A stretch of 64,000 bases of DNA from an uncultured Methanoregulaceae archaeon (GTDB lineage: Archaea; Halobacteriota; Methanomicrobia; Methanomicrobiales; Methanospirillaceae). The translations under genes were made by a program, and so were the position numbers. Under the pieces are notes generated by a model. That model worked only from the letters and a program-made list of their open reading frames with translations. It had not been told where the DNA came from and ran no database searches. The stretch covers positions 2,176,001 to 2,240,000 of the forward strand of contig OY969564.1 of the NCBI GenBank assembly GCA_963701095.1, written 5' to 3'. This document shows, in pieces, positions 8,773-30,676 of the stretch (positions within the stretch are counted from its first letter, which is position 1; each line of letters begins with the position of its first letter).

Positions 8773-10746
8773 TTATACCGGCCTCAGCTTGATGATCTCA
8801 TTATTCTGGTAGCGCCGGATCATTTCCTGCGCGATACTTGAATTCTTGGCAAGGCTGATCTCGCCGTTGTCGTTGACGGTTGCGGTAAAGAGGTACTCTT
8901 TGCCGGCAAAAACATCAACAATCTTACCGCACTGATCCGGGGCAATTATCATAAGTTGTTTTTTGTCGGTCTGGATTTTAATTCCGCCGCCAAGGGAGAT
9001 TTCACCTTCAGGTTTTGTAACGGGTTGGGAATGCTGGCGTTCAAGATCTGATTTGGGTTTGATGTCGATTCCGATCCCTATTTTGTTGACAATAGCCGAG
9101 ACGTTCTTGCCCCCTTTGCCTATGGCTGCCGGTACATCCTTATCATCGATATAAACTACTGCTTTTGTATCGCTGATCATCTCGACATCAACCGAGCCAT
9201 CGGTATATCTTCCGATCTCCCGCTGTATTTCCTTCTCGTTTAGCTTCCAGCCCGGATGATCCTCTGCAGGCGACCGGGGCGTGGCATCGGGAATAGCGGC
9301 AAGAGAACTACTGGGTTTGCTGGTCGGAAGAACCGGCTGACCGATATTCTGGATCGATAGTGATTTTTGAGGTGTTGTTACCGATATTTCGGGACCCTTG
9401 GAGAGAACTGGCATGACAATAGTCTGACCGTCATACCTGAACACGTCGAGTACAAGGCTGCCCGACTCGAAATCTGTTACGGTGGTTACAGGCCGGATGT
9501 GCATTTCGTTACCCATACCTTCGGGCACCTTAATTGTGAATCCAACATCATAGATCTTTGTAACTACACCTTTTTCTAAAAACACAATGGTGTTAATTAT
9601 CTGCGCAAGGACGGAGAAGTCCTCGCGATCGGAAAATCGCTGTAGTGCATCCTGGACACTGTTAGCGTGAATGACGCCAACCATTCCAAGTCCCGCAAGA
9701 CGCATATCAGCAAAAACCGTGAAATCTTCATTTTTCCGTAATTCATCGAATACCACAAAGTCCGGGCGAACCAGCAGGAGAACGTCTGCAGTGTTTGACA
9801 TGCTGCCATCAAGCGTAGTGTACTGCGTAATCTGGTCTGGGACTTGAAGTTCACGGGGGGCCTCCATGGTTTTAACAACGTATCCGCTTTCAGAGAGGTA
9901 TGTCGCGATACCTTGAGCGAGTGTAGTTTTTCCTGCACCGGGTGATCCAGCGATAATAAGGCCTCTCCGGTCTGATACAATCCGTTTCTTGATAATGTCT
10001 GCTTTTGCATAATGGTCAAGTGTTACATCAACTATAGGGCGTACGGCAGTAATTTCCATGCCATCTGAAAAAGGCCGGCGGGCGATTGCTATACGAAGTG
10101 AACCTATCTGGACGACGGTAATTCCTCGCTTTTCGATCTCGATGAATCCGTCGGGATCTCGTTTTGCCCGTTCGAGAATCTCCTGAGCGAGGTTGCGGAG
10201 TTCGTATTCGCTGACCGGTTGATCACGGATTTTTACAAGCTTCATATCGTTGATTGTTCCCTTTTTAGCAACCGGACTGACGCGCTCCTTGAGGTATACC
10301 GCAATAGTGTGCTCGTCAAAGAACTGGTCAATACCAAGAGGGACAAAATCAGTGACCTGAGGTTTGAGGTAAATAACGTCAAGACCTTTCGCTCGCGCGA
10401 CTTCAGCCTGAACATTATCACTGGTGATAAAACGCGCAGCATTTTCGATTGCTATACTCCGTATCATCGCATCGATCTCGCCGCCACTCGCAAGTTTCAC
10501 TTGTTCAAGCGTAGGGCGGATACCGGAGAATTTTAATTCGATGGTTTTCTCCTCGGCCATCTTGCATAATGACTGGAGCTCATTGAGGCCAGAGAACCCG
10601 ATCTCGCGCCCATTATTTGCCTGGGCTTCGAGTTCTGCAATCACTGCCTCGGGGACGATTATTGTTGCTCCTTTGTATTCACCGGCTTTTATCATCGATG
10701 TTATACGTCCGTCGATGAGGACGCTTGTATCTGGTACCAGTATCAT
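8773..10746 (-). CDS. PINc/VapC-family ATPase with KH domain (PINA type)
   Basis: N-terminal PIN (VPDTSVLIDG), Walker A GSPGAGKTT, Walker B VVFDE, KH loop AIGKGG; GGAGG RBS before ATG 10746. Confidence 0.9.
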   Translation of the reverse strand: MILVPDTSVLIDGRITSMIKAGEYKGATIIVPEAVIAELEAQANNGREIGFSGLNELQSLCKMAEEKTIELKFSGIRPTLEQVKLASGGEIDAMIRSIAIENAARFITSDNVQAEVARAKGLDVIYLKPQVTDFVPLGIDQFFDEHTIAVYLKERVSPVAKKGTINDMKLVKIRDQPVSEYELRNLAQEILERAKRDPDGFIEIEKRGITVVQIGSLRIAIARRPFSDGMEITAVRPIVDVTLDHYAKADIIKKRIVSDRRGLIIAGSPGAGKTTLAQGIATYLSESGYVVKTMEAPRELQVPDQITQYTTLDGSMSNTADVLLLVRPDFVVFDELRKNEDFTVFADMRLAGLGMVGVIHANSVQDALQRFSDREDFSVLAQIINTIVFLEKGVVTKIYDVGFTIKVPEGMGNEMHIRPVTTVTDFESGSLVLDVFRYDGQTIVMPVLSKGPEISVTTPQKSLSIQNIGQPVLPTSKPSSSLAAIPDATPRSPAEDHPGWKLNEKEIQREIGRYTDGSVDVEMISDTKAVVYIDDKDVPAAIGKGGKNVSAIVNKIGIGIDIKPKSDLERQHSQPVTKPEGEISLGGGIKIQTDKKQLMIIAPDQCGKIVDVFAGKEYLFTATVNDNGEISLAKNSSIAQEMIRRYQNNEIIKLRPV

Positions 10747-11028
10747 AAAATATTCCTCCTTCATTATAGTATGGCTTTATATACTATTTGTTCAACGAAT
10801 GGGTACGTTGATGGTACTGATATGAGGCGTTGGGGTTTATAAGCGGTTCGGGGGGGAAAGGAAAATCTGTTTTCAAGATCGATCGCACACGACGTCCGAT
10901 TCATTGTTGAACTCAAGTCAGATAGCAGATTAAATAAGAAAATTCAATAAGTTTGACCGTCAGAGCATTATATTCCTTAAAGATATACCTTCCGAACGTA
11001 ACAATTATATGAAAAATGGAGGAGATTT

Positions 11029-17832: not shown

Positions 17833-18213
17833 TTAATGTTTGTTTATTCCATAGACTTTTTCCGGGTCAAAAATTTTTTCCCCAATAATTGTGCCATCAA
17901 GAGTCCGGAAAAAGCAGCTACGGTATCCGGTATGGCAGGCAGCTCCAGTCTGCTCAACGTCGTAGATAAGGCAATCCTCGTCACAATCGACAAGAATCCT
18001 CTCCACCTTCTGGAAATGTCCGCTTTCTTCCCCCTTCTTCCAGATCTTTTTACGGCTCCGGCTATAATAATGGGCAAAACCGGTATCTATCGTGAGTTTG
18101 ACTGCCTCTTCATTTGCATAAGCCATCATAAGGACTTCGAGGGTTTTTCTATCCCGAACAATTACCGGGATTAGTCCACCATCGAGGAATTTCAGAGAGA
18201 GCAAATTACGCAC
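17833..18213 (-). CDS. hisI: phosphoribosyl-AMP cyclohydrolase
   Basis: [30 protein letters not shown]. Confidence 0.96.
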
Positions 18214-19399
18214 CTCCGGTAAATAATTTTATGATTGAGAAAAGGAAATCCCCAAAAACAATTGCTGAAATAAACCCGGCGGTAATTGGAAGAATGAACG
18301 GAACAGCATAGGAAATCCACACGTTCCCTGCTTTTTTGTAGATTTCCAGTTCTTTTTGAAATTCTTCAGGATGTTCCCGGAGATCTTTTGTATAAACACG
18401 ACCTTCATCGGAACGCATCCTGCGCAAAGAATCCCAAAATCCAATGAATTTCCGTTCGACATTGGTACCTCTCTCAACAAAGTCTTCCATAACAAATCCC
18501 CATGAATCCTGAATTTTCCCTCCATTGACCGGGAAGCCAAAGAACATATACTGGAGAGGGGCGCGGTTCTTTTTTATAATATTTATGAAAAAAATGCCAA
18601 CCGGTGCTACAAGATTGAGGATGAGAGCGTTGATTAACACAGAAAACGAGAGAAATCCCAGAGGTGGCGTGTTTAAAAGTGGTGCAAACGGAAATGTCGG
18701 AATACAGAAGGTAATAAAGATGAGTGCCCACGCGTCAGCACCCCCGAAAAGACGCATCTGTCCAAATATATAGAATACGCCACAAAAAACTGCAGCAAGG
18801 GCAATGTAGATACCGGGATCCGCCCAAGTCCCATCCCCAATCATATAGAACGATGCAATGACGAGGATAATGATTACAAGAATGAAATACCAGCGGCTCA
18901 GTACTTCTTCGACATTTGAATCCCGCTTAACTTCTTTTCTTACTTGTTTTGCCTTGAGTTTGCGCTCGGGTTGTCTTTTGTATTCTCTGTATGAGACATA
19001 CCCTATCAGGCCGACAAGCATCACATACCAGGGAATAAGCTGTGTGTCAGGAAATTTTCCTGTAGATATTGCTGGAATTATGAACCAGGAGAGCGCTGGA
19101 AGAACAAGGACACCTGCTAGGTACGGAAGCCGGAACGGTGTTCCAGGTTCATGGTTGTCCAGGTAGTCCGCGTACAGGAAACTGGATACCAGTGCGAGAT
19201 AGCCAACGATCAGGCTGATGTTTGCGGTTTGCTGGTAGAAGAGGACGATAGTTGCGGAAATCCCGACGATGAGCATGGGGTACCATGTTCTGAAAGGAAC
19301 ACGCCGGTCCTTAATATCCAGATACGATGCGTAGATTAGGGTAACAAGGACGGCAACGGCCGAGACCACCATCGGATAAAATATCATATGTAGATCCAC
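18206..19399 (-). CDS. A24-family class III signal (prepilin/prearchaellin) peptidase, FlaK/PibD-like
   Basis: Catalytic Asp motifs [10 protein letters not shown] and FGGAD; C-terminal [16 protein letters not shown]. Confidence 0.88.
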
Positions 19400-19643
19400 C
19401 GTTAGATCTTCTACAACTTATGCGTGACGATGACAATTTTTACCGGCATTCTTTTGTGGGGTCTGGAAGTCTTATCTGTAAAAGAAACCAATTAATAATT
19501 ACCAGTGACTCGTTTTCTGCGTGAAAACACCCTTGCAAATATATAATACACCCGTTGTGAATATATGATTGAAGACAATTCAGAATAATTTTGGGGGGAA
19601 TTCCCATATTTCTGCCCCGGATTGTGTCAAAGAGGATAATTGT

Positions 19644-20255
19644 ATGGATCTGCAGGAAATACTCGAAAATATCCTGAAAGGATCAAAATATCTGGGCACA
19701 TATTCCTTGGCCGAAATGCTTACATTAGCTGCCACCCGGCGCATGAGTGCACTGGCAGTAGCAAAAGAAGGAAATTGTCAATATTACCTTGCACTTCTTA
19801 ATGGTGAACCTGAAGGGGCGCTTTATGTTGATAACGAAGGATCGCTTTTTGGTGATAATGCAGTCATCCATATTCGCGAAGGCAGACAGTATGTCCTCTG
19901 TGATGTAAAACCTGAGATTATCGATGCACTAGTCATGGGGTGCCGGATTTTTGAAAAGGGACATCTCCGGAAAAATATTACCTATTCTGTACCGGAAATT
20001 GGGAAAAAAAGTAAGGGGCTTGGGGTTGTCACTCTTACAGCTCGCCGTGATAAAGTGCCACAAAACGGCGTGCGAGTATCCATTAGGAAAGATGGCAAGA
20101 TAGTAGGAAGTGACGTAACTACGGGAAAAGGGGAGGTTAGCTTCCGGGTAATGTATGGGGACTACACCTGCCTTGTCCAAGACAGAAAACAGGTTGTGAC
20201 GCATTTTACCATTTCATTTGATGAATCTCATGTCAACCATTTTCTCGATCTTTAA
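19644..20255 (+). CDS. DUF2226/PATAN-like N-domain plus a beta-sandwich (carboxypeptidase-regulatory-like) C-domain
   Basis: NGEPEGALY...LFGDNA pattern; C-terminal VTTGKGEVSF..YGDY. Confidence 0.5.
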   Translation: MDLQEILENILKGSKYLGTYSLAEMLTLAATRRMSALAVAKEGNCQYYLALLNGEPEGALYVDNEGSLFGDNAVIHIREGRQYVLCDVKPEIIDALVMGCRIFEKGHLRKNITYSVPEIGKKSKGLGVVTLTARRDKVPQNGVRVSIRKDGKIVGSDVTTGKGEVSFRVMYGDYTCLVQDRKQVVTHFTISFDESHVNHFLDL

Positions 20256-20347
20256 TGCTTAAAAAAACGCGTATTTTATATTTAGAGTCGTATTTCGTTT
20301 CACGAACGGGATGAAATCATTTAATTATTTTCTGACCGAGTAATTTT

Positions 20348-21457
20348 ATGAAGATTGAAAAGGAAGATTTTGTCGCGTTGATCAAGGGAGAAAAAGATAT
20401 AAAATCCTATATTGAGCTTGATACTTTCGCAGGAACCTACTCTGTTTTTGGTGTGAGGACAGCGAGTAACCCCAATTATCTCATCAAGGCAATCTATGAG
20501 ATGAATGAGGCCCATTTGAACAGGAAGCTTGCAGTAAAAGCTGTACGCAAATTATTTCGCTCGGTCGGTCTTGGCTCTGTTGGCCTTTTTAATCTGTTAA
20601 AAAAATTCGATATGGACCTTTCTCCTGCAGAATTCCTTCTCCTGGTCTTCAAACTCCAACATCAACAGGGTTGGGGTGCACCTTTCGAACTTATCGAACA
20701 GAGTGAGAAAAGAATTGTTTTACGCACAAAACACACCTTCGAATCGGAGATTCTTAAAGACTGGAAAATGCCCGTCTGCGGTGTCCATATGGGTTGGATT
20801 GAAGGTGTGCTTATGGCTGTGACCGGCAAGACCTGGTACTGCCTTGAAAGAAGATGTGTGGCAAACGGTGACAATTGTTGTGAATTTGTGGCGGATCAGG
20901 TAGAACCCAGCTGGAAATTCAAAGCCCAGGCAGTAGTAAAAGGTGATTCTGCAATTACCGAATTCATCGAACACAAACCCGTGAAGGGGACAATCAAGTT
21001 GATCGATGATCCAGTAGTTATAATGCCAAGATTTGTTTTTTCATCCATGATGAATTCGCTAAAAAAGACTATGGGAGAGTTGCCAGCAGGAGGTGTGAAC
21101 TATAGGGCGTATATGGATATGGGTAAAGAAAATATTGAACACTACAAAAAAATGGGTATCACTGAGCCTAAAACACTCTCCGATATGGCTTTCACCTTTT
21201 ATTCCCAGATGGGCTGGTTCCGCCTTGTTAAAGATGAATGGAACGAAGGAAAGAAGGAAAAGACAATTACCCTCGATAATACGGTGGAATCCGAGGCATT
21301 TGGGAATACAGGAAAGAACGTCTGCTATTGTACTGCAGGTCTTCTTGCCGGGATAATAGAGGGGTCTTTTGGTATCAAGGTTCAGGCCCGTGAAATTAAA
21401 TGCCATTCGAAAGGAGACGAGTTTTGTGTCTTTACAATAACCAATAAGGCTGAGTAA
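20348..21457 (+). CDS. tandem V4R-domain protein
   Basis: Two GWG/GWF...C...G...E..C...G...C.F units (PVCGVHMGWIEG..ERRCVANGDNCCEF; VCYCTAGLLAG..EIKCHSKGDEFCVF). Confidence 0.85.
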   Translation: MKIEKEDFVALIKGEKDIKSYIELDTFAGTYSVFGVRTASNPNYLIKAIYEMNEAHLNRKLAVKAVRKLFRSVGLGSVGLFNLLKKFDMDLSPAEFLLLVFKLQHQQGWGAPFELIEQSEKRIVLRTKHTFESEILKDWKMPVCGVHMGWIEGVLMAVTGKTWYCLERRCVANGDNCCEFVADQVEPSWKFKAQAVVKGDSAITEFIEHKPVKGTIKLIDDPVVIMPRFVFSSMMNSLKKTMGELPAGGVNYRAYMDMGKENIEHYKKMGITEPKTLSDMAFTFYSQMGWFRLVKDEWNEGKKEKTITLDNTVESEAFGNTGKNVCYCTAGLLAGIIEGSFGIKVQAREIKCHSKGDEFCVFTITNKAE

Positions 21458-21632
21458 AAATTTGGAGAGTTAAATCACTCCAGACCTCCATATTTTGTTA
21501 AAATTCTTCACAGTTTCCCTTGTGATTACGCATGTCTCCTCCTCAAAAGTTTAAATTTTCATGACTTTTTTTAAATTATGAAATCTATATTTAAATACTC
21601 TTGTCTCGTAAAGATAACCGGAAACATACCCA

Positions 21633-22433
21633 GTGAATGCTATGGTTTCGCCCATCCAGATTCTGATCGTGGAAGATGATGAGATAATCTCCAACCTCAT
21701 TGGAGTTATTCTTGAAAAAAAAGGGTATGCAGTTGCCGGCAAAGTTGCTACCGGCGAAGAGGGAATTATGAAGGCGGCAGAATGCATGCCGGATCTTGTT
21801 CTTATGGATATAAATCTTGCAGGCACATTTGATGGTATTACCGCAGCACAATACATTTATTCCATTTTTCGCATCCCGGTGATCTTTCTAACCGGTCAGT
21901 GCGATGATGCTACGCTTAACCGGGCAAAAGCATCTGAACCATACGGGTTCCTTCTTAAGCCTTTCACTTCAAATGAGATTGTGTCTAATATTGAAATCGC
22001 CTTATATAATCACAATATACGAAAAAGATATTTCGATAAAGCCTCGATCTGGGATATGAAAAAGATCATGGCTGCGCTCGAGTCCGTGATCATAATTGAT
22101 ATCAAAGGCCGAATCATTTTTCTTAACCCCTATTCATGCAGGTTGCTGGATGTTATGGAGAAGGATGCGCTGGCGAAACCTCTGAGAAAAGTCCTTATCC
22201 TTGTAAACAAGCAGACTGGCGAACGGATAAATGATCCCGCGCTTGACGTGCTTAAAGATAAGATTGTCGTAAGTTATGATCTTAATACAGTTCTCGTTTC
22301 CCTTTCAAACAAAAAACGTTTGGTGGCAGTCACAGCACGCCCGGTAAAAGATGACAAAAACGAAATGATAGGTGTATCAGTCCAGATTCGTGAAAAGACA
22401 CTTACTGAAATTAAAATGTCAGAAAAGATCTGA
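21633..22433 (+). CDS. response regulator, REC-PAS
   Basis: IVEDD, DLVLMD, FLT, KPF; C-terminal PAS (IIIDIKGRIIFLNP). Confidence 0.9.
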   Translation: MNAMVSPIQILIVEDDEIISNLIGVILEKKGYAVAGKVATGEEGIMKAAECMPDLVLMDINLAGTFDGITAAQYIYSIFRIPVIFLTGQCDDATLNRAKASEPYGFLLKPFTSNEIVSNIEIALYNHNIRKRYFDKASIWDMKKIMAALESVIIIDIKGRIIFLNPYSCRLLDVMEKDALAKPLRKVLILVNKQTGERINDPALDVLKDKIVVSYDLNTVLVSLSNKKRLVAVTARPVKDDKNEMIGVSVQIREKTLTEIKMSEKI

Positions 22434-22462
22434 ACCGGATTTCAAACGAATCAAAAGCGTGA

Positions 22463-23263
22463 TTATTTTATATCAGATTTCTTTTTGAAAAGAGCCTTTG
22501 AGAACCTTTCGATAAAGCCGTCTCTTTGCACTTTGGCCGGAATCTCCTCCGTATATGCCACTCCTATGAGTTGTGAAGCAATCCGTTGAATCGCTTTTGA
22601 CGCAGGTGAGTCCGGATAGGAGACAACGATCGGTGATCGCGCCGCCGCAGCCCTCCGTACATTGGAATCCTCAGGAATAATTCCGAGCACTTTCACTCCA
22701 AGAACTTTTTCCATTTTCTTTGAAATGACATCACTTTTATCCTGGTCAACACGGTTAATAATTGAACCAAGGACGTGTCCTCCGACAACCTCTGTAAGGA
22801 TTTTTGTCTTAAGGGCGTCTACAATTGAGGATAGTTCGGGGTTAACTACGAGAATTACTTCATCGGCTACAGCAAGAGGAACTACACCATCTTTGCTTAT
22901 GCCGGCTGGAGCATCAATCAAGAGAAACTCGCATCTTTTTACAATTTCGGAAAGAACGTCCCGGATCTTATCTGGATCTGCTTGCTGGAAACCCTGAAGC
23001 GAGATACCGCTTGGTATCACTTTAAGCCCCGCAGGACCCTGGTAGATTCCTTCATCGATATTGTTCTTCCCGGCAAGGATTTCATGAAGGGTGACCGGAG
23101 CGTCCTGAAGACCCAGTATCAGTCCGACGTTTGCCATGCCGATATCGGCATCCATGAGGTAGGTCTCTTTCCCCAATTTTGCAAGCATCGTTCCCAGATT
23201 AACTGAAACGGTTGTTTTACCTGTGCCACCCTTCCCGGATGCAATCGTATATACTTTAACCAT
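22463..23263 (-). CDS. minD: MinD-family ATPase
   Basis: Deviant Walker A ASGKGGTGKT, DADIGMAN, DAPAG; C-terminal amphipathic GFIERFSKALF. Confidence 0.92.
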   Translation of the reverse strand: MVKVYTIASGKGGTGKTTVSVNLGTMLAKLGKETYLMDADIGMANVGLILGLQDAPVTLHEILAGKNNIDEGIYQGPAGLKVIPSGISLQGFQQADPDKIRDVLSEIVKRCEFLLIDAPAGISKDGVVPLAVADEVILVVNPELSSIVDALKTKILTEVVGGHVLGSIINRVDQDKSDVISKKMEKVLGVKVLGIIPEDSNVRRAAAARSPIVVSYPDSPASKAIQRIASQLIGVAYTEEIPAKVQRDGFIERFSKALFKKKSDIK

Positions 23264-23347
23264 TAAGCACCTGTTGTTATCCCGATAATTATCCTTGCAC
23301 AAATATGTGTATGATGAAATATTTTATCTAATGTGTTTCATATCGTT

Positions 23348-23917
23348 TTATATCCACCAGTTTAAAATATCTTTTGTCTCGCACACAAAATCCCGATCTG
23401 GCTCCTGAGCAAGCAGATCTTTCGTTTTTGCAATTCCAACTAATAAAGATCCCTTATGCTCTATACTGAACAGTATAATACCCGGGGGCCAAGGCCGCAT
23501 GTTCTCGGCATACATTTCCGCATATCTGGCGACTGCATCGGTAGAAGGTTTTTTTTGGGAAGAAGCCAGCAACAGACCATCGGAAGTGGCAAGAGTGATC
23601 TCTTCGAGGGCATATTTTGCAGCAAGAGTTTCAAGACTCTCTGAGAGATTGGTCTTTCCTTCAAGGCAGTCCATCTCTTTTATTTTGGATGTAGGACCGA
23701 AAGTCAAATCCGACTCGGAGGAATTACTTTCAATATATGCCGGGATCTTTCGTACACGAAAGGGTATTTTCGAGGGATCCAAATTTATATCACTCGGAAA
23801 TTCTTTAGTTCGCTGACGATTTTTTATTATCAAAATTAAGATCGCAGCACAGACGAGGATAGCAACAACTATTCCAACGAATAAGATGACGTTGTCAATA
23901 CCAAACATACCAGACAT
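23348..23917 (-). CDS. membrane-anchored protein with a degenerate Roadblock-like C-domain
   Basis: N-terminal TM helix; ITLATSDGLLLASS resembles the Roadblock hairpin. Confidence 0.55.
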   Translation of the reverse strand: MSGMFGIDNVILFVGIVVAILVCAAILILIIKNRQRTKEFPSDINLDPSKIPFRVRKIPAYIESNSSESDLTFGPTSKIKEMDCLEGKTNLSESLETLAAKYALEEITLATSDGLLLASSQKKPSTDAVARYAEMYAENMRPWPPGIILFSIEHKGSLLVGIAKTKDLLAQEPDRDFVCETKDILNWWI

Positions 23918-23932
23918 ACGGTTACCCTTAGA

Positions 23933-24644
23933 TCAATCTTTATCCATCAGATGATCGAGATGGAGATGTTTAACCATCGTTTTGCAATCGTCCCTGATTT
24001 TATCTTTTACCTGATCAAGGTTCATTGAGTCCAGTATGTCAAGATCATTGTCGAAATCAGTTTTTTCAGTGTTTTTTTCAGGTATTTCCGGTTCTTTAGG
24101 GCCCGGTTGTCTTTCCAATCGTATTGCAGGAGGTGGTCCAGTGACAGGATTTTGCGGCCCCGCAAGGCGCCGGGGAATCTTTTCCGATGAATGCGCAACT
24201 AATGTTGCCACTTCTTCATGTGGTGGTGAAAGGTTTTTTTCATGGATGATATCGGTTTTTTTTATGAGGTACTCGTTGAGCTGGAACTACCGTGTGAGGT
24301 GTTGATTTTCGTGGGGCCGGACGGTTATAGGTGGCTTTTGCGATTCGTTCGGCCTTGTTGAATTCCAGAGATAACTGAATTTGTTGTTCATCCAAGGTTG
24401 AAAGTGCAGCGTCGACCGTCTCTCCAGCGAGAGAATCGAGGAGATCTTCAAATGCTGCATCACCTTTGAAAGAATTGCATTCCGCGAGAATACATTTCCC
24501 CGATTTCAGTACGAGAGTGCAGATACTATCCCGCTTTGAAATGCTGCAGATCCCGGAAAAATGCCCTCGTTCAAGCTCAACGAGAAGGTTATGAGTTTCC
24601 CTGTTCTTTTGGATCTCGCGGAATGTCCCGCGGGGAAGTTGCAT
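23933..24644 (-). CDS. DUF2226/PATAN-like protein, apparently frameshifted at the T8 run 24256-24263
   Basis: MQLPRG...FSGICSI...LVLKSGKCILAE...GDAA. Removing one base joins ORFs 24240..24710 and 23933..24211. Confidence 0.65.
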
Positions 24645-24710
24645 GATCTCTTTAATGATCGCATTCAAGTATATAGTTTCTTTTTCCTGTTCATGAAAAT
24701 TTTTCTTCAC

Positions 24711-24905
24711 TCGTAGTGGAAAAAAGATTTTTGTATACTATTTTTAATTTATAAAATACCTATAAATATAATTTGTTTTTCAGATCAAGGTTTAAATGAA
24801 TTTTTTTTGTTTTTCAAGGAATATTGGTTCTATATTCCTTGGATAAATAAACCCAACCTATTAATATGAAAAAAACAAGAGTAACATTTATTAAATGGTG
24901 AAAAG
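24711..24905. promoter_or_regulatory. AT-rich divergent promoter between the minD-side and pilus-side operons
   Basis: Very AT-rich, several TTTATA/TATAAA boxes, flanked by divergent genes. Confidence 0.6.
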
Positions 24906-25253
24906 ATGCTCAAACCATTATTAGAGGAGTTCCTGAGGGTTGAAGGAGTATCTGCTGCAGTTGTGGTGGGAAGAGATGGGTTTGTGATTGAAAGCGCGGT
25001 TTCGGGGAAGCTGGATGTGGAGGCTCTTGGTGCAATGGCATCAACCGGTCTGGGGACTTCTGAAGCGATGGGGAATACCCTTGGAAAAGGAGAACTCTCC
25101 CAGATGCTTGTTGAACTTGAAAAAGGACCTATTATTCTCGCACCTCTTTCCGCAGATGAACTAATTGCCCTGGTTGCAGATTCAACAGCAAATATCGGCA
25201 GGATCCGGTACGAATTAAAGAAAAATAAGGAACGTATCGTCGCAGCTCTCTAG
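24906..25253 (+). CDS. Roadblock/LC7 (MglB-like) protein
   Basis: GVSAAVVVGRDGFVIES...ANIGRIRYE. Confidence 0.92.
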   Translation: MLKPLLEEFLRVEGVSAAVVVGRDGFVIESAVSGKLDVEALGAMASTGLGTSEAMGNTLGKGELSQMLVELEKGPIILAPLSADELIALVADSTANIGRIRYELKKNKERIVAAL

Positions 25254-25278
25254 ACCTATCATTTATCTGGCTATTTTT

Positions 25279-26025
25279 ATGAAACTGCCGGCAGGAAGAC
25301 AAGGGGGTGTCGTTATCGATCCAAAGAAAGAAGATGTGATCCAGCATCTCAAGGCTTTTAGAGGAGTAATCAACATTAACACAAGCCGGGGAAAGGGCTT
25401 TATTCTTATACGCAATGGTGAATTGATCGCAGCATTTTTCGATGATAAAGAAGGCGTATATCGGGCAGACGCTGCCGTTCGATATATCATGGATTATCCT
25501 GGCGATGATGCCGACAACCAACACCAGCAACATTTTGTTATGAGATCTTATAGTGAAGAAGAATACGCAGAATCACTGAAAAAATGTACACGGGAGGGAC
25601 TCGTGATTGAGATCATTCCCGTTGATAAAAGTGCCACTCCTCTTCAACCTAAAAGCACGGATATGGCCATAAGTCACATGTCCCCCCGTGTTGACGAATC
25701 CATCCTTAAAAAACTTATGTGCCAGCCGGGAGTAATTGCGGTTTCTGCATTCTATGAAGGATTTCCGGTCCTGTCTTTAGGAGAAGCGGATTTTGAGCAT
25801 GTAGCGGCTCGGGCAGAAGATTTTCTGAGGACAGGTACTAAAATAGCTCAGGATATGAACCTTGGGCAGCCTGGCCAATTGATACTCGAAACTGAAGAAA
25901 ACAAATTTATCATAGTTCCCTGGGGAGATCTTTTTCTTTGTATTATTACCCGTGCGGATGCACAGCTGGGTCTCATGCGGGTTCTGATCCGTAGCATCCA
26001 GAGTGTTGTGGAGAGTGAAACCTGA
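25279..26025 (+). CDS. DUF2226-like N-domain fused to a Roadblock/LC7 C-domain
   Basis: MKLPAG...FRGVINI...GFILIRNGELIAAF; C-half PGVIAVSAFYEGFPV...AQLGLMR. Confidence 0.72.
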   Translation: MKLPAGRQGGVVIDPKKEDVIQHLKAFRGVININTSRGKGFILIRNGELIAAFFDDKEGVYRADAAVRYIMDYPGDDADNQHQQHFVMRSYSEEEYAESLKKCTREGLVIEIIPVDKSATPLQPKSTDMAISHMSPRVDESILKKLMCQPGVIAVSAFYEGFPVLSLGEADFEHVAARAEDFLRTGTKIAQDMNLGQPGQLILETEENKFIIVPWGDLFLCIITRADAQLGLMRVLIRSIQSVVESET

Positions 26026-26154
26026 CCAGACGAATGTTATTTTCTGGGGAAGGTTTTTCCTGCATCACGTTCAGAGAATACATATAGTCTGAGAAAAAAA
26101 GAACTTTTATATAAATGCTAGGGATTGCGAATATCGCATAGGAGGAGATTTAAC

Positions 26155-28712
26155 TTGAAATCACAGGATGAAGAGGAGCACGATGACATAAACACCCTTC
26201 TTAAAAAAATCAAGGGCATTCAGGCGCCGGGGAATGAATCTACAGGGTCTGTTATAGCCCCACCTCCTGAAAAAAAGCCCGGGGAAGGGGAATCAGATAT
26301 GAGTGATGCCGGTGATTTTTCAGCCCTTATAAAAAAGCTCAGGCTCTCCAATACTCCAACAACTACTGAGACCGAACAGGAAACAACCCTACCTGGAGAT
26401 GCACTTTTTAATCCTGATAAAAAATCCGATCTAGGGGAATCTGATCAGGGAAGGTCCGGCGATTTTTCAGCAATTATCCGCAAACTTGGTATAGAAAACA
26501 CCCAAACCAAAAGTGCTGAACCCGAAGTCATAACATCACCTGTGAAATCTACAATCCCTGATAGGGGGCAGGACGATTTGGATGACTTGCTTGAAGATGT
26601 TTCCGTGGCGAAACAAGTACCTGAATCTCCTGATATGGGCGCCGGTAACGTACGCGCGGTACAGGTAAAAGCCATGGAACCACCGGCAACACCTTCTTTG
26701 GTTATTCCACCTCCTGAAAAAAAATCTGCGCCGGACGCGACAGAATCTGTCCCTGAACCAGCAGTGGAAATAATTGAAGAAGACCCTCGTGAAAGTAAGA
26801 CCTCAAAATTTTTCAAGAAAAAGAAGACAGTAAAAAGTGAAAGTGAAGAGGGAAAGGCAGCGGATTCAGTAATAAGCGATGCAGATGAACGAATAATATC
26901 CGCGGACCAGATCTCCGAGTATTCCGGACTGATCCTCCCCAAGGGCGCGACATTCCAGATTGACGAGATCAATCTTCATGGGAGAATGACGGCATTTGAA
27001 AGTACCGGGACCGGTACCCTGCCTCCTGAACTCGCTAATGTTTGGAAAAGGGAGTTTTCAAGTGCCGGGTTTAAAGATCTGGAATCTGAACTGAATCTGG
27101 AAAAGGAAAAAATTGATAAATCTGCAACAAAGAAATCCGGGTTTGCTTCTCTTTTCGGTGCTATACGACAGACCTCCGTTGATTATGATCCCAAATCACA
27201 CGGTCCTTTGGTGGATCTTTCTTTTGAAATAAAGCCCGGCATCGAAGAAATGGAGATGTATCCGGTCAACGAACCTTATGCTTATGTCAGGGTTATCTAT
27301 GACCACTCGACTCATGAATACACATACCAGGTAATAGAACCCGTCCTTACTGAACCAGAAAAAGATCTCTTGAAAGAACTAAAAGAGCGTCTCTTTGAAA
27401 CACTTGACATTAATACTAAAGATATATCCAAAGAGGAAGCCCGGCGCCGCTCAGGAGTGCAGTGGACGATATTCTCTCTGACTATGGGATAAAACTTAGT
27501 CCGGTACAACGTGAGAAGATCTTATATAACATGCATAAGGATTTTCTCGGGGATGGACTGATCGACGCGATCATGCATGACAAATATATCGAAGATATCT
27601 CATGTGATGGAGTTAACACACCCCTCTTTGCCTTCCACGCCAGCTACGAATCGATGAAGACAACGCTGATGTATCACAACGCTGAAGAACTTGATTCGTT
27701 TGTCACAAAACTCGCCCAGCGTGCAGGCAAGTACATTTCAATTGCAGAACCGATTCTTGATGCCACCATGTCCGATGGTTCCCGTATCCAGATGACACTT
27801 GGCCAGGAAGTAACAGCACATGGTTCCACATTTACCATACGTAAATTCAAGGATGAGCCGATTACACCAACGGATCTTATTGAGTGGCATACGTTTGCCC
27901 CGCTTTCTGTGGCATATATATGGCTTGCTGTCGAGAATGGCAAATCTGCTATTTTCGCCGGGGGGACTGCTTCCGGAAAAACTACATCATTAAACGCGAT
28001 TTCGCTTTTTATTCCGCCGATGGCGAAAATCGTTAGTCTCGAAGATACACGTGAAGTGAAACTTCCTCATCCAAATTGGATTCCCAGTATTACAAGAGAT
28101 TCCTTCGATACGGCAGGACGTGGGGAAATCAATATGTATGAACTCCTGCGCGCAGCAATGCGGCAACGGCCTGAGTATATCATTGTCGGAGAAGTTCGTG
28201 GGAAAGAATGCCAGACACTCTTCCAGGCAATGAGTACTGGCCACGTAACTTATTCCACAATCCACGCGGACTCGGTATCGAGTGTTGTCCACCGTATCGA
28301 GAATCCTCCCATGGATGTTCCGCGAAACATGCTTTCCGCTCTCGATATTGTGTGTATTCAGGTGCAGGCAAGAATGGGTGGAAAACGGATCCGCCGCAAT
28401 AAACAGATTGTTGAAATTCTCGATATCGATCCACGAACAAACGAACTCATCACAAACGAGGTTTTCAGATGGCGATCAGCTACCGATGAGATTACGTATT
28501 CAGGCAAGTCCTACATCCTTGAAGATATCATGGAAGCCCGGGGCTGGAACGAGAACCGTATGCGGGAAGAACTCAAGCGGCGGCAGGAAGTGCTTGAATG
28601 GATGCGAATCAAAAAGATCCGGCATTATAAGGATGTCGCGAAGATTCTTATCTCGTACTATCGTGAACCTGAAGTGGTTATTGAACGCGTGAGGAAGGAT
28701 CTGTATGAATAG
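26155..28712 (+). CDS. type II/IV secretion ATPase (ArlI/FlaI-PilB/TadA-like) with a long acidic N-terminal extension; apparent 1-nt deletion at about 27445
   Basis: YPVNEPYAY, IEDISCDG, TIRKF, Walker A GGTASGKTT, LEDTRE, RQRPEYIIVGEVRG, TGH; RBS GGAGG before TTG 26155. Confidence 0.9.
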
Positions 28713-29628
28713 CTTTGAGCGATTTTGTTTTAATCTTCTCGGAATGCGTATGAAGGCCCACCGTGAGCAGTACGCCCAGCTTCGTAATGACCTCATATCT
28801 GCACGGATCAAAACCCCCTTTGAGGTCTATATCTCCACGGCGATTGTCAGCGCTATCATCGTGGGGCTCGTGGCAGCGGTCGGATTGGGTCTTCTTACCT
28901 GGGTCCTCAAAATTCCCAATCTCATAAAATACAAAGGTGAGGTTCCGGCTACGGTACTCTTTCTCTCCCAGTACGGTCTTATTATTGGTACCGTTTTTGC
29001 GGTTGTATTCTCTTTATTGATTTTTGGCGGAATTACATACGCCATTTTTAGTGTTTATCCTTCGGTTGAGGCCGGGAACAGGCGCCGGAATATTGACGCG
29101 ACGTTACCCTATGCGATCAATTACATAACATCAATGTCGACTGCCGGAATTACTCCCGCAGAGATCTTCCGATTACTTGGAGACAGCCCGATATATGGTG
29201 AAAGCTCAGTAGAGGCCCGTTATATCGCAAGGGAGATTGACATATTCGGTCGGGATCTTATTGATGCACTCAGGATAGTATCATCAAGCACTCCCTCAGT
29301 CCGGATGAAGGAATTTTTGCAGGGTGCAATGGCCAGCATATCGAGCGGGGGAAACCTTACAGATTATTTCCGGACAAAGGCCAACCAGTACGCACTGGAA
29401 AATCGCCAGAGCCAGAAATTGTTTCTCGATACGCTTGCACTTATTTCTGAGTCCTATGTAACGGCAATGGTAGCAGGAACGCTCTTTTTGATCATCCTCC
29501 AGTCCATCATGTCAGTCCTTGGTGGAGATTCAAAACCAATATTCCTCTATGTTGTCATTTACCTGATGATCCCCTTTGGGACGATAATGTTCATTATTAT
29601 GATTAGTTCCATGACCCCGGAGACCTGA
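28705..29628 (+). CDS. type II secretion F / TadC (PilC/ArlJ-like) membrane platform protein 1
   Basis: IDATLPYAINY, FGRDLIDAL, SGGNLTDY; overlaps the ATPase stop codon. Confidence 0.9.
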   Translation: MNSFERFCFNLLGMRMKAHREQYAQLRNDLISARIKTPFEVYISTAIVSAIIVGLVAAVGLGLLTWVLKIPNLIKYKGEVPATVLFLSQYGLIIGTVFAVVFSLLIFGGITYAIFSVYPSVEAGNRRRNIDATLPYAINYITSMSTAGITPAEIFRLLGDSPIYGESSVEARYIAREIDIFGRDLIDALRIVSSSTPSVRMKEFLQGAMASISSGGNLTDYFRTKANQYALENRQSQKLFLDTLALISESYVTAMVAGTLFLIILQSIMSVLGGDSKPIFLYVVIYLMIPFGTIMFIIMISSMTPET

Positions 29629-29629
29629 C

Positions 29630-30676
29630 ATGGCTTTCAACGACAGAATCACCGGTATACTCGGAAAACAAAAGGACACAACCGCAAAACCCGCGGCACT
29701 TACACGAACAGAGCTTGATTCGGTGGAAAAGGAACTTAATGAGATTACCGAAAAACTAGCATCTGAACGTAAAAACCGGGAAGGGATAGGGCTGTTTTTC
29801 AAGCACCCTCTTCAGGTTCTTTTGGCGAAACCGGAAAATATCCTTATAGTGTGCCTCCCCCTTTCACTCATCGTTTTTTTTGGCGGATTTATCTCCATGG
29901 TAAAGATATATGGTATTTCCGTTCTCTTCACATCGACAGTTGTCGACGATTTTGCAGTACTTGCAATCCTGATATCGATAATACCCGTATCAATTCTCGA
30001 TCTCAGGCAACAGTCACGGATAAATAATATTGAGGTTGCACTTCCCAACTTCTTCCGCGACCTTGCAGGTATGAATGATTCCGGTATGACTCTTCCCAAT
30101 GCTGTTCACCTGGTTGCAGGTGCAGAATATGGCGCCCTGACCCCTCATATAAGAAAACTGGACAATGAGATGTCATGGGGGGTCGGTTTTGTTGAGGGTA
30201 TGTACCGGTTTGGACAGAACCTTGGTACACCACTTGCCGACCGTAGCGTTGATCTTATCGCAAAGGCAAGCAAAGCCGGCGGTGATATCAGCGAAGTACT
30301 CCGTGCAGCGGCAAACGATACCTTTGAAGTGGTCAATCTTGCACAGGAACGCCGGAACAATATGCTGATCTACGTGATAATCGTCATCGTCTCATGGGCG
30401 GTCTTCATGTTTGTTATCGCGGTCCTCGTAAGTTCTTTCCTAAGCACTATGGCAACGGCGGGTACAGCTGCACAAGCAACACATGCGAGCAGCAAATTTA
30501 TGGGAAGAATCGATCTACCTGCGTATAAACGTCTGTTTACGCATGCGGCTATGATCCAGGGTTTTTTCTCCGGTCTTTGTGCGGGCCAGATGGGTGAAGG
30601 ACGGGTCATTGCGGGTCTCAAATATGCAGCGATTATGCTGATTATTTCGTGGGTAGTTTTCCGTTTCTTCATCTAA
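29630..30676 (+). CDS. type II secretion F / TadC membrane platform protein 2
   Basis: LPNFFRDLAG..SGMTL, AGGDISEVL, GQMGEG. Confidence 0.9.
   Translation: MAFNDRITGILGKQKDTTAKPAALTRTELDSVEKELNEITEKLASERKNREGIGLFFKHPLQVLLAKPENILIVCLPLSLIVFFGGFISMVKIYGISVLFTSTVVDDFAVLAILISIIPVSILDLRQQSRINNIEVALPNFFRDLAGMNDSGMTLPNAVHLVAGAEYGALTPHIRKLDNEMSWGVGFVEGMYRFGQNLGTPLADRSVDLIAKASKAGGDISEVLRAAANDTFEVVNLAQERRNNMLIYVIIVIVSWAVFMFVIAVLVSSFLSTMATAGTAAQATHASSKFMGRIDLPAYKRLFTHAAMIQGFFSGLCAGQMGEGRVIAGLKYAAIMLIISWVVFRFFI

Follow-up and report, generated by a model that had tools for sequence, protein, structure and literature searches.

A MinD, Roadblock, and PATAN-like gene module linked to a clade-2 type IV pilus locus in Methanoregulaceae, with a possible role in pilus regulation

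In the genome of an uncultured Methanoregulaceae archaeon (GenBank assembly GCA_963701095.1), we analyzed a stretch of 64,000 nucleotides (contig OY969564.1, positions 2,176,001 to 2,240,000 of the forward strand; hereafter the window), in which the locus at 18206..30676 combines genes of an archaeal type IV pilus (T4P) with genes encoding a MinD-family ATPase, Roadblock/LC7 proteins, and proteins that carry PATAN-like domains. The locus appears to consist of two joined units, a T4P assembly core of euryarchaeal clade 2 and an older accessory module that has no small GTPase of its own. Our preferred reading, which we hold tentatively and with a little less than even confidence, is that this module is centered on MinD and regulates the clade-2 pilus, i.e., where, when, or in what number it is assembled. 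Coordinates below refer to the window; P228, TM189, P156, s92, Robl115, PRobl248, TadC1, and TadC2 are gene names coined in this analysis; and f1 denotes Methanoregulaceae, f2-f6 other families of the same order, and f14 a second order.

Regulation of T4P assembly is described as little known (Makarova, Koonin, and Albers, 2016, PMC4858521), and the locus offers a conserved and concrete candidate for the control of pilus place or time in archaea, where such control is almost unknown. If the reading is true, the module would add a third mechanism for steering type IV filaments to those of MglA/MglB and of the PatA-type regulators, and it would provide the first function for "orphan" MglB-like proteins. 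The weight of the finding is limited in that the gene list is already published, the mechanism is wholly inferred, and experiments in the host lineage are difficult.

Proteins of the pilus core and of the linked module

The locus belongs to the archaeal T4P assembly systems, as it encodes an A24 peptidase, a FlaI/VirB11-type ATPase (intact in the population, see below), and a TadC/FlaJ platform. The prepilin (class III signal) peptidase (18206..19399, - strand) matches the Pfam models Arc_PepC_II (E 8.3e-23) and Peptidase_A24 (E 3.3e-6). The FlaI/PilB3-like ATPase of euryarchaeal clade 2 (26125..28712, +; Pfam T2SSE E 3.1e-32) scores 401.9 bits against the curated FlaI model, below the equivalog cut-off of 550, and lies slightly under the cut-offs of both Pfam PilB3_N and PilB3_C. 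Between families of the order, its core shows 78-80% identity; it is preceded by a variable and disordered N-terminal arm of ~300 residues. The platform is split into two proteins with one T2SSF domain each that cover the first and the second half of ArlJ/FlaJ, namely TadC1 (28705..29628, +; E 1.2e-14; positions 27-249 of the 555 of ArlJ) and TadC2 (29630..30676, +; E 5.9e-17; positions 279-542 of 555).

Methanoregula ATPases of this kind are placed in the euryarchaeal Clade 2 in Table S2 of Makarova et al. (2016, PMC4858521), according to which clade-2 loci often contain two tadC-like genes and PilB3-type loci encode no pilins, the pilins acting in trans. For this reason the missing pilin is ordinary for such a locus. 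An earlier note on this DNA had observed that no pilin gene is present in the window, and a genome-wide scan agrees with this: the Pilin_N model gave 12 matches over its cut-off to pilins with a class III signal peptide, all outside genome positions 2176001-2240000 and clustered at 182, 235, 1800-1814, 2131, and 2427 kb, and none of them within the 64-kb window. The Pfam Class_IIIsignal model gave 0 matches over the genome, whereas Pilin_N detected pilins. About six T2SSE ATPase loci are present in this genome.

The N-terminal arm of the ATPase (window 26125-27100; alignment A6) carries one to three copies of a basic amphipathic motif of the LLKKI and ALIKKL types. The motif occurs in 14 of 15 ATPase orthologs, with 19 copies against 0.7 expected in shuffled sequences, for a pattern that was picked post hoc, and it never occurs in the core. 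It may be a docking site for MinD or another protein of the module. Complex prediction for P228 with an ATPase ortholog (residues 200-812, L013:7369-9807; alignments A6 and A7) scored 0.00 in both runs and is evidence neither way. The arm also contains an invariant LILPKGATF block (near residue 219 of the L013 ATPase); it was considered as a PATAN-like piece and rejected, as the hhalign match covers only the four residues LPxG with a probability of 0.3%.

Three further proteins of the locus are probably related through their N-terminal domains: P228 (19644..20255, +), which has no Pfam family, P156 (encoded within 23933..24644, -), and PRobl248 (25279..26025, +), in which the N-domain precedes a Roadblock domain in the C-terminal half (Robl_LC7 E 2.2e-5). 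By profile-profile comparison (hhalign), the N-domains of P156 and PRobl248 match with a probability of 92% (E 5.5e-7), and P228 matches the PRobl248 N-domain with a probability of 80% (E 1.4e-5), which indicates that these latter two are probably related; the direct comparison of P228 with P156 was not significant. Searched against 1.84 billion representative sequences, the PRobl248 N-domain profile (alignment A4, 17 sequences) retrieved 157 proteins at E<=1e-3. After exclusion of fragments and four very long proteins, 28 of the 50 weaker matches scanned contain DUF4388 (best E 2.4e-9), 19 contain DUF2226 (best E 1.8e-93), and 7 contain Robl_LC7; among the 73 stronger matches scanned, Robl_LC7 was found in 25 and DUF2226 in 2.

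The earlier note had used the label "DUF2226/PATAN-like" for genes of this locus, and the Atlas leads score 0.83 for PATAN and 0.86 for DUF2226. Judged by these profile results, the label is right at the superfamily level and wrong as Pfam membership. The DUF2226 model (PF09987) matched none of six window proteins at E up to 10 and, with the limit set at E 1, nothing across the genome; DUF4388 reached E 0.037 with PRobl248 and E 0.096 with P156, i.e., 13-14.5 bits against a cut-off of 25.

In AlphaFold2 models of P228 and PRobl248 (mean predicted local distance difference test score ~80), the N-domain has an alpha/beta fold whose elements follow one another in the same order in both proteins. 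After it comes a second domain, which in P228 is modeled as a transthyretin/CnaB-like beta-sandwich. P228 has neither a signal peptide nor a membrane helix and is probably a small cytoplasmic protein composed of a PATAN-like domain and a beta-sandwich. Searches with whole proteins in Foldseek and VIA-align returned lists filled by the Roadblock domain or the beta-sandwich and not by the N-domains, and profile searches of the Protein Data Bank (PDB) sequences with the PATAN-like N-domains gave nothing under E 0.1. In the part of Makarova et al. (2016, PMC4858521) considered here, arCOG09604 is filed as "surface protein" and arCOG09603 as "uncharacterized"; both are tied here to the PATAN/DUF2226 superfamily. 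The PATAN-like reading thus moves P228 from a filed surface component to a probable cytoplasmic partner of the motor.

Variants of these proteins occur among the relatives. P156 (24630-24644, -) and PRobl248 (25279-25296, +) both start with M-x-L-P-x-G. The P228 ortholog of two Methanoregulaceae relatives has 325 residues with a tandem duplication of the N-domain (L017:14356-15333, L018:5101-6075), and the PRobl248 ortholog of one f2 relative is 628 residues long (L023:9911-11797); in that genome, separate N-domain and Roadblock matches fall inside one 629-residue frame. Several f3/f5 genomes have, at a separate site, a second full-length PATAN-like-Roadblock paralog of greater divergence; at the one locus looked at (L029), its neighborhood contained none of the other genes of the set.

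The Roadblock/LC7 domain typical of an MglB-like partner is present, both in PRobl248 and in the single-domain Robl115 (24906..25253, +; Pfam Robl_LC7 E 1.7e-16), which scores 26.8 bits against the MglB equivalog model (cut-off 200). There is no Ras-like small GTPase in the locus, and in the whole genome, scanned with Pfam Ras alone, the sole match over the cut-off lies inside a 415-aa frame at 2038 kb, ~160 kb from the locus. Two more single Roadblock genes are found in this genome at 2169818-2170066 (~6 kb before the window) and 2301526-2301786 (~60 kb after it).

The archaeal MinD ATPase (22463..23302, -) passes the TIGR01969 model with 315.1 bits (cut-off 201.75) and scores 34.2 bits against CpaE_hom (cut-off 154). 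Its orthologs have 261-285 residues, with a CbiA/ParA match that spans 16-245, and all 17 of those aligned have the deviant Walker A motif SGKGGTGKTT and a basic amphipathic C-terminal tail with the motif GFI[DE]R..LF, which is predicted to bind the membrane. The idea that this protein is a HypB of the ATPase type that serves the hydrogenase encoded beside the module in other families (see below) was set aside, since it passes the archaeal MinD model, scores 36-60 bits against Mrp/ApbC-type models, and is kept in Methanoregulaceae, which lack that hydrogenase.

The last protein of the module, TM189 (23348..23917, -), has no Pfam family and is a single-pass membrane protein with one N-terminal hydrophobic helix and a conserved cytoplasmic C-domain of ~100 residues (alignment A5). 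Its family, arCOG03412, is named "Roadblock/LC7 family" in Table S4 of Makarova et al. (2016, PMC4858521), and the earlier note had likewise labeled it TM-Roadblock-like; the Atlas scores are 0.79-0.81. We could not confirm this label: besides the lack of a Pfam match, hhalign against two Roadblock alignments (9, then 56 sequences) gave probabilities below 2%, and the PDB profile search reached E 1 with a dynein roadblock chain.

In Methanoregulaceae the locus also includes two putative signaling genes between P228 and minD. The V4R protein (20348..21457, +; Pfam V4R E 1.4e-22 in two stretches, with a partial MsvR-like match) is a predicted sensor or regulator, and the REC-PAS protein (21633..22433, +) combines Response_reg (E 5.1e-20) and PAS_9 (E 4.3e-7).

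Gene order within and beyond Methanoregulaceae

We retrieved 80 related loci, all from Methanoregulaceae or unclassified Methanomicrobiales metagenome-assembled genomes, of which 48 had full flanks, defined as at least 8.5 kb upstream and at least 6 kb downstream of PRobl248. The earlier note had named synteny among relatives as a check, and within the family it proved near-perfect (47-48/48 full-flank loci). MinD, P156, Robl115, TadC1, and TadC2 are each present in 48/48, the ATPase in 47 (it is fragmented in the remaining one), the peptidase in 47, P228 in 46, and V4R in 45. TM189 was detected in 35/48, a count that depends on a single-sequence bit threshold, and REC-PAS in 21/48 at a single-sequence threshold of 80 bits. 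As these genomes are kin, the counts measure stability and not independent events.

In f2/f3, the same genes are clustered in all six loci (6/6) in a changed order, i.e., peptidase, then further along hydrogenase genes, Robl115, PRobl248, P156, MinD, P228, ATPase, TadC1, and TadC2. Compared with this arrangement, the MinD arm is inverted in f1 and P228 lies on its far side. The peptidase gene is divergent from that of P228 in all families seen, and all 10 ATPase-holding loci outside f1 (10/10) have P228 immediately upstream of that gene. Neither V4R nor REC-PAS was detected in the loci of the remaining families. Across all families, we observe two stable units: unit (a), which consists of the peptidase, P228, ATPase, and two TadC genes, and unit (b), which consists of Robl115, PRobl248, P156, a membrane or other small protein, and MinD.

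A functional tie of unit (b) to the pilus is suggested by three points: the linkage outlasts rearrangement in f1-f3, a PATAN-like domain is common to both units, and PATAN domains elsewhere bind PilB1 and PilC. The first two points also bear on an alternative in which the gene order is inherited with no functional tie and the pilus core and the MinD/Roadblock genes act independently. The linkage is confined to three related families and could be explained by one ancestral juxtaposition, and other lineages have the T4P core without the module or the module without the core. Such passive inheritance would nevertheless have had to survive at least one large rearrangement (f2/f3 versus f1) and to persist in 47-48/48 species-level Methanoregulaceae loci, and the shared PATAN-like domain links the two units irrespective of gene position; we therefore consider this alternative quite improbable.

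A number of observations weigh against a pilus-regulating module, most of them from more distant families. In the six f4/f5 loci, the genes lie in two separate places, with the peptidase divergent from P228-ATPase-TadC1-TadC2 at one of them (4 loci) and the string P156-TM189-MinD-ferredoxin-187-aa protein-hydrogenase small and large subunit-Robl115-PRobl248 at the other, so that the ATPase ortholog is ~1 Mb or more from the module or on another contig. This full distant string is present in 4/6 loci around PRobl248 (L025, L026, L028, and L030); in the 20-kb stretches of the other two (L024 and L031), no MinD, P156, or TM189 was detected. In a sample of 201 genomes of the phylum, full-length PRobl248 occurs in f1-f5 (28/30 genomes), in none of five f6 genomes, and, outside the order, only in f14 (10/10). 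The f14 order (4 loci) is ferredoxin, a 184-aa protein, hydrogenase small and large subunit, Robl115, PRobl248, a longer P156-like protein, an unrelated protein of 237-295 aa, MinD, and a small membrane protein, with no pilus ATPase nearby; the best match to the latter is 57% identical and >1 Mb away. Conversely, f6 has the ATPase ortholog in 3/3 genomes (78-79% identity) and no match to the PRobl248/Roadblock profile (0/5), so the pilus core works without the module. Overall, only 6/16 loci outside f1 hold an ATPase ortholog, and in 16/16 the gene directly upstream of Robl115 encodes a hydrogenase large subunit. The f1-f3 linkage may stem from one ancestral event, the genomes being kin. To these points we add that the window proteins fall under Pfam's own thresholds for DUF4388 and DUF2226, that the pilus of this system is predicted from genes alone, and that the locus has already appeared as a gene list in Table S4 of Makarova et al. 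(2016).

Unit (b) is thus older than its link to unit (a), and since lineages exist with each unit alone, dedication of the module to the pilus is not supported. The proposal of the earlier note, a dedicated module that places or switches a type IV filament in a methanogen, stands as far as the T4P core, the MinD, Roadblock, and PATAN-like genes, and the synteny (47-48/48; 6/6 in f2/f3) are concerned, and its "dedicated" is weakened (f4/f5, f14, and f6). A module that stands alone in f4/f5 and f14 next to a hydrogenase might instead be a general MinD-based organizer of the cell with other cargo, such as Mvh-Hdr complexes, the archaellum, or chemosensory arrays, or with several cargoes, the pilus being a neighbor or one client. 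For Haloferax, MinD proteins are reported, in the part of that literature considered here, to act on cell shape and CetZ1 as well as on the archaellum and the chemosensory arrays. Methanoregulaceae, however, lost the hydrogenase (0/87 loci) yet kept the module, interleaved with pilus genes; the pilus core has a PATAN-like protein of its own (P228) that is homologous to those of the module; and the locus in the window encodes no cargo besides the pilus machine. On balance, we regard a general organizer as unlikely, though a serious contender.

Outside Methanoregulaceae, the hydrogenase is a more constant neighbor of unit (b) than the pilus genes are. The BLAST match of its large subunit ends within 60 nt of Robl115 in 14/16 loci, and the two ORFs as called share 7 nt in f14. 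The enzyme is a [NiFe]-hydrogenase of the F420-non-reducing Mvh/Vhu type, with 409 bits for VhuA and 250 bits for VhuG, both under the cut-off. Examples of the operon, which includes an unnamed protein of ~185 aa, are L025:6087-9571 and L121:6028-9466 (from the set L019-L031 and L119-L122). In f1, none of 87 loci contains the hydrogenase and 83 contain the ATPase, and the genome of the window has no ortholog of the linked enzyme, the best match being 25% identical. Each of three Methanomicrobiales genomes examined carries the linked hydrogenase as its sole Mvh-type copy, the next match reaching 31-34% identity over part of the protein, and a second Mvh-type paralog (47-48% identity) is encoded at another place in two f14 genomes. 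The part of Makarova et al. (2016, PMC4858521) considered here makes no mention of this neighborhood. So constant a neighbor suggests that hydrogen metabolism and surface filaments may be connected in syntrophic methanogens.

One could therefore imagine that the Mvh-type hydrogenase reports H2 and that the module converts this signal into pilus assembly, e.g., for attachment to H2-producing partners, with V4R and REC-PAS having replaced the hydrogenase in Methanoregulaceae. The order hydrogenase-Robl115-PRobl248-P156-...-MinD is kept across two orders, the f2/f3 string continues into P228-ATPase-TadC1-TadC2, V4R and REC-PAS occur exactly in the family without the hydrogenase, and the second paralog of f14 would free the linked copy for another role. 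As the only Mvh-type copy in the three Methanomicrobiales genomes, however, the linked hydrogenase is probably an ordinary metabolic enzyme, and the window itself encodes none, so that we rate a hydrogen signal as rather improbable. A broader speculation, which we likewise deem improbable, is that the Roadblock pair, the PATAN-like adaptors, and MinD form an ancient GTPase-less switch that couples sensory input to T4P assembly in hydrogen-dependent methanogens. In most lineages its input would be the Mvh-type hydrogenase, with pili following H2, and in Methanoregulaceae V4R/REC-PAS would serve instead, the switch having been built into the pilus locus.

Proposed mechanism and comparison with known systems

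Under the preferred reading, in which the MinD-centered module regulates the pilus, ATP-bound MinD dimers would sit on the membrane via the C-terminal amphipathic tail, and the Roadblock pair, the PATAN-like proteins, and the membrane protein would be regulators or adaptors of MinD. The PATAN-like domains may contact the pilus motor (the ATPase and/or TadC), and the module would thereby set the place, time, or number of pili assembled, with signals supplied in Methanoregulaceae by the V4R and REC-PAS proteins. Starting from the observed gene content, folds, remote homology, synteny, and intactness in the population, we infer all protein contacts and the output on the pilus from PATAN binding to PilB1/PilC in Synechocystis, from the placement of motility machines by the MinD family, and from Roadblock proteins as regulators of nucleoside triphosphatases (NTPases).

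The locus has been catalogued yet is unstudied, and what is added here are corrected gene models and domain labels. Table S4 of Makarova et al. (2016, PMC4858521) gives the same 13-gene order for Methanoregula boonei with arCOG names, and the ATPases of M. boonei are listed there as Clade_2; the entries for Methanoculleus, Methanoplanus, and Methanocella match the split layouts that we found. The Roadblock arCOG02603 (in one sentence) and the FleN/MinD arCOG00589 (in several) are noted in that paper as T4P-associated, and the part of it considered here offers no model for the Roadblock or uncharacterized genes. We found no functional study of the module in the open literature (subscription journals lay outside the coverage), in agreement with the earlier note, which knew of no functional characterization. 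No literature on DUF2226 was found either, and the papers listed for PATAN with PilB are all bacterial by title. The Dip divisome-positioning system (PMC13228585) was considered as a relative and rejected, since its GTPase, DUF2073, and Zn-ribbon proteins bear no relation to those discussed here.

In Myxococcus xanthus, the MglA/MglB(/MglC) polarity module steers type IVa pili. Instead of the MglA-type GTPase of that system, none of which was found here with Pfam Ras, the only NTPases of this locus are MinD and the pilus ATPase. The Roadblock proteins are thus "orphan MglB" in the sense of Wuichet and Sogaard-Andersen (PMC4316618), who cite PATAN-MglB neighborhoods and, in the part considered here, note that no orphan MglB had been characterized as of 2014. 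In Synechocystis, the PATAN domain of PixE binds PilB1 and PilC (10.1101/2021.06.11.447907). The PatA-type proteins PixE/PixG, in which PATAN is the output domain, resemble the present system in that a PATAN-superfamily domain goes together with a T4P ATPase, although here its binding is putative and the domain is very divergent (Pfam E 0.04-0.1). Further, PATAN is fused to a receiver domain in PixE/PixG, whereas here it is fused to Roadblock, a beta-sandwich, or a helix, and REC-PAS is a separate gene.

MinD-family ATPases are tied to motility-type machines in Haloferax, where MinD4 acts on the archaellum and chemosensory arrays, and an oscillating MinD has been reported to position archaeal motility machinery (10.1101/2020.04.03.021790). 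The MinD of this locus shares with the MinD/ParA placement systems the deviant Walker A motif, the tail, and a secretion-ATPase machine with a two-part TadB/TadC-like platform. Bacterial FlhG/FleN and the TadZ/CpaE of Tad pili are examples of machine placement by this family, and TadZ/CpaE has a receiver-like N-terminal domain before its MinD/ParA domain. At ~265 residues, the MinD here lacks such a TadZ-type N-domain, and its partners would be Roadblock and PATAN-like proteins rather than MinE, FlhF, or CheY-like domains.

The pilus core itself has close counterparts among archaea. The Epd pili of Methanococcus maripaludis are made with the peptidase EppA, the split platform EpdJ/EpdK, and the ATPase EpdL, with the major pilin encoded elsewhere, and we know of no Roadblock/PATAN module described with this system. 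Both systems have a dedicated A24 peptidase, an ATPase, two half-size TadC-like genes, and a pilin encoded apart. Unlike the clade-2 ATPase here, that of the Epd system belongs to clade 1 (Makarova et al., 2016, PMC4858521). Clade-2/PilB3 loci of the PilB3/PilC3 type of Haloferax volcanii are alike in ATPase class, in the two tadC-like genes, and in pilins that act in trans.

Gene models, assembly breaks, and surroundings of the locus

The open reading frame (ORF) coordinates of the earlier note were all borne out, and two of its genes were merged. For P228, the conserved start MDLQE lies at 19644 in an ORF that opens at 19569. The ORFs P156 (24240-24710, -) and s92 (23933-24211, -), neither of which has a Pfam family, form one gene (23933..24644, -) that encodes the PATAN-like N-domain, a proline-rich linker, and a conserved C-terminal helix; counted in this way, the eight signaling or scaffold genes enclosed by the pilus genes hold as a number. 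The AT-rich intergenic region between the divergent MinD-side and Roadblock/ATPase-side operons was likewise recovered, with a GC content of 0.356 in 24500-24999 against ~0.45 in the surroundings, and its bounds moved from 24711-24905 to 24645..24905, since the conserved P156 start MQLPRG sits at 24644. It contains several TATA-like runs and is one of two divergent, AT-rich candidate promoter regions in the layout.

Two frame changes are present in the window, one near 27450, where the ATPase is split in the assembly into two overlapping ORFs (26125-27492, + and 27462-28712, +), and the other between 24211 and 24240. In relatives, the ATPase is a single ORF of 773-1124 aa and P156+s92 a single ORF of 201-264 aa, along which both window ORFs tile. 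Each break traces to a 1-base indel, at 27448 and 24268 respectively. Logan contigs from three sibling samples of the same study have, at full depth, one base fewer at 24268 and an extra G behind 27448; these are the only indels between the stretch and these contigs, which otherwise match it closely. Contigs of a further run from another study (X5) cover parts of the stretch only and neither indel site. The two frameshifts could be taken as signs that the locus is decaying, with the ATPase and one PATAN-like gene as pseudogenes, and we find this scarcely credible, given the intact reading at both sites in three other samples and a completeness score of just 86% for a genome in one contig, which fits an assembly with indel errors. 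We take the splits for indels of the assembly or for a rare variant rather than for decay. Considering the completeness score, 1-base indels may have disrupted further genes of the assembly in the same way.

The locus is flanked by housekeeping genes, i.e., hisI, a cation efflux gene, and pst genes on one side and SUI1 and cobQ on the other. Farther away in the window, a 663-residue protein (8773-10764, -) combines an N-terminal PIN domain with a T2SSE-like P-loop domain and is probably not a pilus gene; the same N-terminal sequence occurs in genes beside the peptidase and hisI in other families (L020:3174-5123, L036:14383-16344).

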